The notes below the pieces were generated by a model, which had not been told where the DNA came from, searched no databases, and saw only the letters and a program-made list of their open reading frames with translations. This document shows, in pieces, positions 53,335 to 55,617 of a DNA stretch of 64,000 bases (positions are counted from its first letter, which is position 1; each line of letters opens with the position of its first letter). Location of the stretch: NCBI RefSeq assembly GCF_003334785.1, contig NZ_QOWV01000001.1. One strand, 5' to 3'. The stretch is from Escherichia coli. GTDB taxonomy: Bacteria > Pseudomonadota > Gammaproteobacteria > Enterobacterales > Enterobacteriaceae. The translations under genes were made by a program, and so were the position numbers.

Positions 53335-55617
53335 TTACATAGATTGAGTGAAGGTACGAGTAATAACGTCCTGCTGCTGTTCTTTAGTCAGCGAGTTGAA
53401 ACGTACTGCGTAGCCAGATACACGGATGGTCAGCTGCGGATATTTTTCCGGGTTTTCCATCGCGTCGAGCAGCATTTCACGGTTCATCACGTTAACGTTC
53501 AGGTGCTGACCACCTTCGATGGATGCTTCGTGGTGGAAGTAACCATCCATCAGACCAGCCAGGTTGGTCTTACGAACTTCGTCGTCTTTACCCAGTGCGT
53601 TCGGAACGATAGAGAAGGTGTAGGAGATACCATCTTTAGCGTAAGCAAACGGCAGTTTAGCAACGGAAGTCAGAGAGGCTACTGCACCTTTCTGGTCACG
53701 ACCGTGCATCGGGTTAGCACCCGGTCCGAACGGCGCGCCAGCACGACGACCGTCTGGGGTGTTACCCGTTTTCTTACCATACACAACGTTAGAAGTGATG
53801 GTCAGAACAGACTGAGTCGGGATAGCGTCACGGTAGGTGTGCAGTTTCTGAATTTTCTTCATGAAACGTTCTACCAGGTCAACAGCCAGGTCATCTACAC
53901 GCGGATCATTGTTACCAAACTGCGGGTATTCGCCTTCGATTTCGAAGTCGATAGCCAGACCGTCTTCGTCACGAATCGGTTTAACTTTCGCATATTTGAT
54001 TGCAGACAGGGAGTCAGCAGCAACGGACAGACCAGCGATACCACACGCCATGGTGCGGATAACGTCACGGTCGTGCAGCGCCATCAGAGAGGCTTCGTAG
54101 CTGTACTTGTCGTGCATGTAGTGGATGATGTTCAGTGCAGTGATGTACTGTTTAGCCAGCCAGTCCATGAAGTGATCCATGCGCTCCATCACTTCATCAT
54201 AGTTCAGGACATCGCCTTTGATCGGTTCAGACTTCGGACCAACCTGCATTTTCAGTTTTTCGTCAACGCCGCCGTTGATTGCGTACAGCATGGTTTTCGC
54301 CAGGTTTGCACGCGCACCGAAGAACTGCATTTGTTTACCAACGATCATCGGGCTTACGCAGCAAGCAATAGCGTAGTCATCGTTGTTGAAGTCCGGACGC
54401 ATCAGGTCATCGTTCTCATACTGCAGAGAAGAGGTGTCGATGGACACTTTAGCGGCGAATTTCTTGAAGTTCAGCGGCAGTTTTTCAGACCACAGAATGG
54501 TCATGTTCGGTTCCGGAGACGGACCCATGGTGTACAGGGTGTTCAGGAAACGGAAGCTGTTTTTGGTAACCAGGGTACGACCGTCGAGGCCCATACCACC
54601 GATAGATTCGGTTGCCCAGATCGGGTCGCCAGAGAACAGTTCATCGTATTCCGGAGTACGCAGGAAGCGAACCATACGCAGTTTCATGACCAGGTGGTCA
54701 ACCATTTCCTGCGCTTCTTGTTCGGTGATCTTGCCAGCTTTCAGGTCACGTTCGATGTACACATCCAGGAAGGTGGAGGTACGACCGAAGGACATTGCAG
54801 CACCGTTCTGAGACTTAACAGCAGCCAGGTAGCCGAAGTAAGTCCACTGGATAGCTTCCTGAGCGTTGGTAGCCGGACCAGAGATGTCGTAGCCGTATTT
54901 CGCAGCCATTTCTTTCATCTGACCCAGAGCGCGGTGCTGTTCAGCGATTTCTTCGCGCAGACGGATAGTCTGTTCCAGGTTTACGCCGTTTTCCAGATCA
55001 GCCTGCAGAGAAGTGAACTGTGCCAGTTTGTCTTTCATCAGGTAGTCGATACCGTACAGCGCAACGCGACGGTAGTCACCGATGATACGGCCACGGCCAT
55101 ATGCATCTGGCAGACCGGTCAGAACACCAGATTTACGGCAACGCAGGATGTCCGGAGTGTAAACGTCGAACACGCCCTGGTTGTGAGTTTTACGGTATTC
55201 AGTGAAGATTTTTTTGATCATCGGATCCAGTTCGCGGTTGTACGCTTTGCAGGAACCTTCGATCATTTTGATACCACCGAACGGGATAAGAGCACGTTTC
55301 AGCGGAGCTTCAGTCTGCAGACCAACGATTTTCTCAAGCTGCTTGTTGATGTAGCCAGCGTCGTGAGAGGTGATGGTGGAAGCAACAGCGGTGTCAAAGT
55401 CAACTGGCGCGTGAGTGCGGTTTTCCAGTTTAACGCCTTCCATTACTTTGTCCCACAGGGTGGTGGTCGCTTCAGTAGCGCCAGCCAGGAAGGACTCGTC
55501 ACCCTCGTACGGAGTGTAGTTTTTCTGAATGAAGTCACGGACGTTTACTTCATTCTGCCAGTCACCTTTGGTAAAACCTTCCCAGGCTGTGGCTAACTTT
55601 TCATTAAGCTCGGACAT
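53335..55617 (-). CDS. pflB: pyruvate formate-lyase (formate C-acetyltransferase)
   Basis: 760 aa; glycyl-radical C-terminal motif (RVSGYAVRF); strongly biased codon usage. Confidence 0.97.

Follow-up and report, generated by a model that had tools for sequence, protein, structure and literature searches.

For E. coli K-12, Mir et al. 2012 (PMC3454372) showed that long open reading frames (ORFs) in the codon-aligned antisense register, which they named frame -1, follow from the codon choice of very highly expressed genes. They cite earlier work by Merino (1994) and by Silke (1997); Merino speculated that frame -1 is a relic of ancient bidirectional coding. Genome-wide, long antisense ORFs are in excess, and codon usage explains this excess only partly (Mir et al., PMC3454372; Moshensky & Alexeevski, bioRxiv 10.1101/724807). 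Opposite dnaK, Moshensky & Alexeevski reported 282 ORFs longer than 1800 bp, which were not under negative selection, together with a slight resistance to synonymous change; these ORFs entered Pfam as PF10712 and were once annotated as "NAD-specific glutamate dehydrogenase" (bioRxiv 10.1101/724807). A functional role has been claimed for pop, an ORF of 603 bp that lies opposite ompA in E. coli O157:H7 (EHEC). The reported evidence consists of a transcription start site with promoter activity, a Shine-Dalgarno motif and a terminator, of ribosome footprints and a Western blot signal, and of a phenotype on overexpression (PMC7103648).

Here, we analyzed a very long frame of this kind opposite pflB. 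Like the frame -1 shadow ORFs of Merino 1994 and Silke 1997, as cited in Mir 2012, the pflB frame lies in the codon-aligned antisense register, faces a host gene with an extreme codon bias, and owes its openness to the rarity of TTA, CTA and TCA codons. There is no material difference from this class, which has been described since the 1990s; the pflB frame is one of the longer E. coli K-12 examples and is not exceptional among them. Like the antisense dnaK ORFs, it is a very long antiparallel ORF opposite the gene of a conserved, abundant protein, and its translation is likewise without negative selection. While the antisense dnaK ORFs make up a Pfam family, searching the predicted pflB antisense product gave no match in NCBIfam and no significant match in Pfam. 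We conclude that the plus-strand ORF is almost certainly a non-coding "shadow" of pflB, a passive by-product of its codon bias.

The window (the whole 64,000-nucleotide stretch of E. coli DNA analyzed) begins at position 897938 of NC_000913.3 (E. coli K-12 MG1655), which served as the annotation reference. The K-12 derivative ER1709 (NZ_CP030240.1) was dropped from this role for its IS1 insertion and its frameshifted coding sequences relative to the window. ER1709 carries an IS1A insertion beside cspD (window positions around 24430-24450) that the window does not have, and its rlmC, ltaE and ybjD are annotated as frameshifted, while the matching ORFs of the window are intact.

The pflB gene (53335..55617, minus strand) encodes formate C-acetyltransferase (pyruvate formate-lyase) of 760 aa. 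It is a real gene by its codon adaptation and by its identity: it has 100% nucleotide identity to the annotated K-12 pflB (b0903), with focA and pflA as neighbours. The sequence-only reading had described a 750-codon stop-free plus-strand ORF opposite pflB, and both its coordinates and its description are exact by ORF listing and direct translation. The ORF spans 53344..55596 on the plus strand, corresponding to 951281..953533 of NC_000913.3, with 750 codons followed by TAA, zero internal stops, and a TTG as the only available first start. Its end is the complement of the sole TTA codon of pflB, Leu8 (55594..55596, minus strand). On the 5' side, the frame is closed by an in-frame TAA directly outside pflB (53332..53334, plus strand). 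From stop to stop, the open stretch is thus 53335..55593, 753 codons, flanked by TAA at 53332 and TAA at 55594. pflB and the antisense ORF share the same codon register, both having a coordinate modulo 3 of 1. In this register, the antisense frame reads the reverse complements of the pflB triplets, and therefore stops arise only opposite sense TTA, CTA and TCA codons. The remaining two plus-strand frames over pflB contain 50 and 29 stops.

We then counted the codons that matter for the antisense frame. The 62 Leu codons of pflB comprise 56 CTG, 3 CTT, 2 CTC, 1 TTA and 0 CTA, and its 36 Ser codons comprise 20 TCT, 12 TCC, 3 AGC, 1 TCG and 0 TCA. Stop-complement codons thus occur at 1.3 per 1000 in pflB, compared with 24 per 1000 in the window's 52 other annotated genes. 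When PflB was recoded with the window-average synonymous usage, 14 stops were expected (Poisson P(≤1) ~1e-5), and 0 of 20000 simulations reached a 700-codon run. The usage of highly expressed genes gave quite a different result. In ribosomal-protein and elongation-factor (EF) genes (6499 codons), TTA and CTA together make up 2.8% of Leu codons and TCA makes up 2.9% of Ser codons. With this usage, 2.8 stop-complement codons are expected in pflB against 1 observed (P(≤1) = 0.24), and a run of at least 752 codons has a probability of 0.07, which becomes 0.11 when a broader set of highly expressed genes is taken. The openness of the antisense frame is therefore extreme against average genes and unremarkable against highly expressed genes.

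The codon adaptation index (CAI), calculated with the ribosomal-protein/EF gene set as the reference, placed pflB in the same category. Its CAI of 0.80 is the maximum of the window (median 0.39), equals that of groL, and exceeds those of rpoB, rpoC and dnaK; among E. coli genes, pflB ranks with the most codon-adapted. Across 70 genes, each of at least 200 codons, CAI and the density of TTA, CTA and TCA were strongly anti-correlated (Spearman rho = -0.90), and the highly expressed genes had 0-4 stop-complement codons per 1000. PflB is an abundant protein. This abundance and the computed CAI suggest that the bias of pflB is due to its expression level. Translational selection would have brought the Leu codons mostly to CTG (56 of 62) and the Ser codons mostly to TCT or TCC (32 of 36). 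With one TTA and no CTA or TCA remaining, the frame would then stay open passively along the gene, with nothing selecting for the openness itself. Codon bias had already been suspected as the cause of the openness by the sequence-only reading, and the codon counts together with the top CAI of the window bear this out.

The same effect is present in other abundant genes. The longest open codon-aligned antisense run is 991 codons in rpoB, 844 in rpoC and 803 in aceE, followed by 752 in pflB, 605 in adhE, 544 in rpsA, 531 in groL and 528 in fusA; in atpA (513 codons) and in tufA and tufB (394 codons), the run covers the whole gene. An independent ORF listing gave antisense ORFs of 962 aa for rpoB, 803 and 513 aa for rpoC, 757 aa for aceE, 605 aa for adhE and 409 aa for aceF. 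In E. coli dnaK, which contains two CTA codons, the run is 409 codons long. The earlier description of the pflB frame as an outlier in length thus holds against average genes; it does not hold against long highly expressed genes, where rpoB, rpoC and aceE have longer runs and the probability is about 0.07-0.11. The paralog tdcE provides a natural control, being near pflB in length and Leu/Ser content (764 aa, 69 Leu, 38 Ser) while its bias is weak (CAI 0.49). Opposite tdcE there are 8 antisense stops, and the longest run is 267 codons.

Elsewhere in the window, artI (4320-5051) has 234 of 243 codons open in the codon-aligned antisense frame, artP (5069-5797) has 209 of 242, and dmsA (43022-45466) has a 350-codon open run. 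In these three genes also, the antisense openness scales with a low TTA, CTA and TCA content.

The above observations raise a question of whether the whole frame, or a part of it, is nevertheless a genuine young, lineage-restricted overlapping gene with low translation from a GTG or TTG start, like pop opposite ompA. In favour of it, K-12 and many of its close relatives have the ORF intact, and translation could start at any of the fourteen GTG and three TTG codons in the frame. Expression has also been reported for antisense ORFs of other highly expressed genes; one of them is pop, which is likewise embedded antisense in a highly expressed E. coli gene (PMC7103648). We nevertheless regard such a gene as very unlikely on the basis of its conservation, expression signals and predicted product.

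For conservation, 80 Enterobacterales pflB loci from representative genomes were collected (89-100% protein identity), and the 79 full-length ones were used. The sequence-only reading had proposed interruption of the frame in orthologs as a test. The frame is in fact broken at many sites in these 79 orthologs, all of at least 89% identity, which argues against coding: each carries 1-20 stops (median 2), scattered over many different Leu and Ser positions. A run of at least 700 codons is kept in only 22 of the 79, and 17 are without any run of 300. The 22 orthologs with a nearly fully open frame belong to near relatives among the Enterobacteriaceae whose codon bias is similar, which is the outcome that codon bias predicts. 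The stop load of the orthologs rises with the TTA, CTA and TCA usage of the flanking focA and pflA genes (rho = 0.43, p = 9e-5).

We judged selection on the antisense protein by direct counts in place of an OLGenie-like dN/dS test for overlapping genes. Such counts suffice because, in the codon-aligned register, nearly all sense-synonymous differences are antisense-nonsynonymous. Among the orthologs, the mean antisense identity was 0.72 compared with 0.93 for the sense PflB, and 95% of the sense-synonymous codon differences altered the antisense residue. In the eight sampled E. coli alleles, 100% of the synonymous polymorphisms changed the antisense residue; in an example comparison, 17 sense-synonymous and 0 sense-nonsynonymous differences corresponded to 17 antisense-nonsynonymous ones. 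A divergent allele labelled as E. coli, L014, showed the same tendency, with 41 of 45 sense-synonymous differences altering the antisense residue. By these identities and counts, there is no sign of purifying selection on the antisense protein, whose sequence evolves as a free by-product of sense-synonymous change. ORF integrity is not conserved within the species either: in 2 of the eight E. coli alleles, a silent CTG-to-CTA change adds an antisense stop, at Leu100 in strain ST865 and at Leu716 in CFSAN018748. These two natural variants could serve as ready-made "antisense stop" alleles.

The expression signals point in the same direction. The antisense frame contains no in-frame ATG, only 14 GTG and 3 TTG, because all 14 His codons of pflB are CAC and never CAT. 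The 20 nt that precede the TTG at 53344 lack a purine-rich Shine-Dalgarno motif. No promoter-like site was found on the plus strand in 52300..56000 by a simple consensus match, a test that can miss real promoters; in the consensus promoter/terminator scan, the total number of sites was not above that of shuffled sequences. Of the signals of pop that a sequence can reveal, such as a promoter and a Shine-Dalgarno motif, the pflB frame showed none.

Upstream of the antisense ORF start, the pflB-pflA spacer forms a stable plus-strand hairpin at 53252..53295, followed on the plus strand by UUUAUUGU. Folding of the spacer at 53252-53319, which includes this hairpin and a small second one (53296-53319), gave a dG of -23.5 kcal/mol (z = -3.65) with a U-rich tail. 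The hairpin at 53252-53295 represents the pflB terminator read on the opposite strand; the simple terminator scan left it unflagged. It may block plus-strand read-through towards the antisense ORF, and the pflB terminator hairpin may thus act bidirectionally. Such a stable hairpin with a U-rich tail just upstream is a further point against an overlapping gene.

In amino acid composition, the predicted antisense product is odd and unlike normal proteins (V 14.9%, F 10.8%, K 0.9%, P 0.9%, M 0); this and the absence of a family match also speak against a functional protein. Embedded antisense ORFs of five E. coli strains, MG1655 among them, have been surveyed by Ribo-seq; pflB/b0903 is absent from the main text and from the 18 supplementary files of that survey, and a 2023 preprint on the K-12 antisense transcriptome makes no mention of pflB antisense expression. 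The frame is therefore probably not translated. The slight residual uncertainty concerns only low-level antisense translation. In a more specific version, a condition-specific antisense transcript would carry a non-ATG start from which a segment of the frame is weakly translated, as a very young overlapping gene confined to E. coli and its close relatives; we give this version even less credence. A translated frame would be an exceptional overlapping gene and, in length, would exceed all other bacterial antisense overlap candidates, and nothing here points there.

A different proposal is that selection acts directly against antisense stops and keeps the frame open, either as a relic of ancient bidirectional coding or for some benefit of openness. 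The reported genome-wide surplus of long antisense ORFs over the predictions of simple models would be in line with this. Such selection should deplete TTA, CTA and TCA beyond the other non-optimal Leu and Ser codons, for which we took TTG, CTT, CTC, TCG and AGT. There is no specific avoidance of this kind in pflB, where the stop-complement codons make up 1 of 7 non-optimal Leu/Ser codons compared with a share of 0.21 in the ribosomal/EF set (Fisher p = 1). In the 79 orthologs pooled, their share is 0.31, the same as in average window genes (0.31), with no extra depletion. This result already largely refutes direct selection against antisense stops. The many stops in the paralog tdcE and in the more distant orthologs, and a stop count that tracks general codon usage, reduce its likelihood further, to a negligible level. 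Pure chance, with codon bias irrelevant, has a single point in its favour, namely that a long ORF picked out from among many genes is a selected observation, and it is equally negligible given the 14 stops expected under window-average usage, the failure of every simulation to reach 700 codons, and the 50 and 29 stops in the other two plus-strand frames.

With the frame read as a passive shadow of pflB, the analysis matters mainly as a negative result. Long codon-aligned antisense ORFs of highly expressed genes should not count as gene candidates unless they pass tests that condition on the host codon bias. A reusable recipe is to count the sense TTA, CTA and TCA codons and to compare them with a matched high-expression reference and with the other non-optimal Leu and Ser codons. 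Weakly biased paralogs such as tdcE, and silent frame-breaking polymorphisms within a species, extend the recipe.

Some minor features of pflB and of the window were noticed as well. pflB has only six Leu codons other than CTG, and two of them, the CTT of codon 4 and the TTA of codon 8 (55594-55608, minus strand), are within its first eight codons. The CTT at codon 4 is kept in 61 of the 79 Enterobacterales orthologs and the TTA at codon 8 in 57 of the 79, while the rest of pflB is almost purely CTG. The 5' ends of genes have a known preference for AT-rich or rare codons, and the early CTT and TTA of pflB fit this. At the other end of the gene, the 3' segment encoding the C-terminal glycyl-radical region (53347-53517) matches grcA at about 80% nucleotide identity in E. 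coli genomes. Typical E. coli genomes have three matching places for this segment, which, judging from the annotation, would be pflB, tdcE and grcA. Finally, ftsK contains a self-match with an offset of 39 bp at 37504-37734 (37504-37695 against 37543-37734, 87.5% identity), indicating tandem 39-bp repeats.
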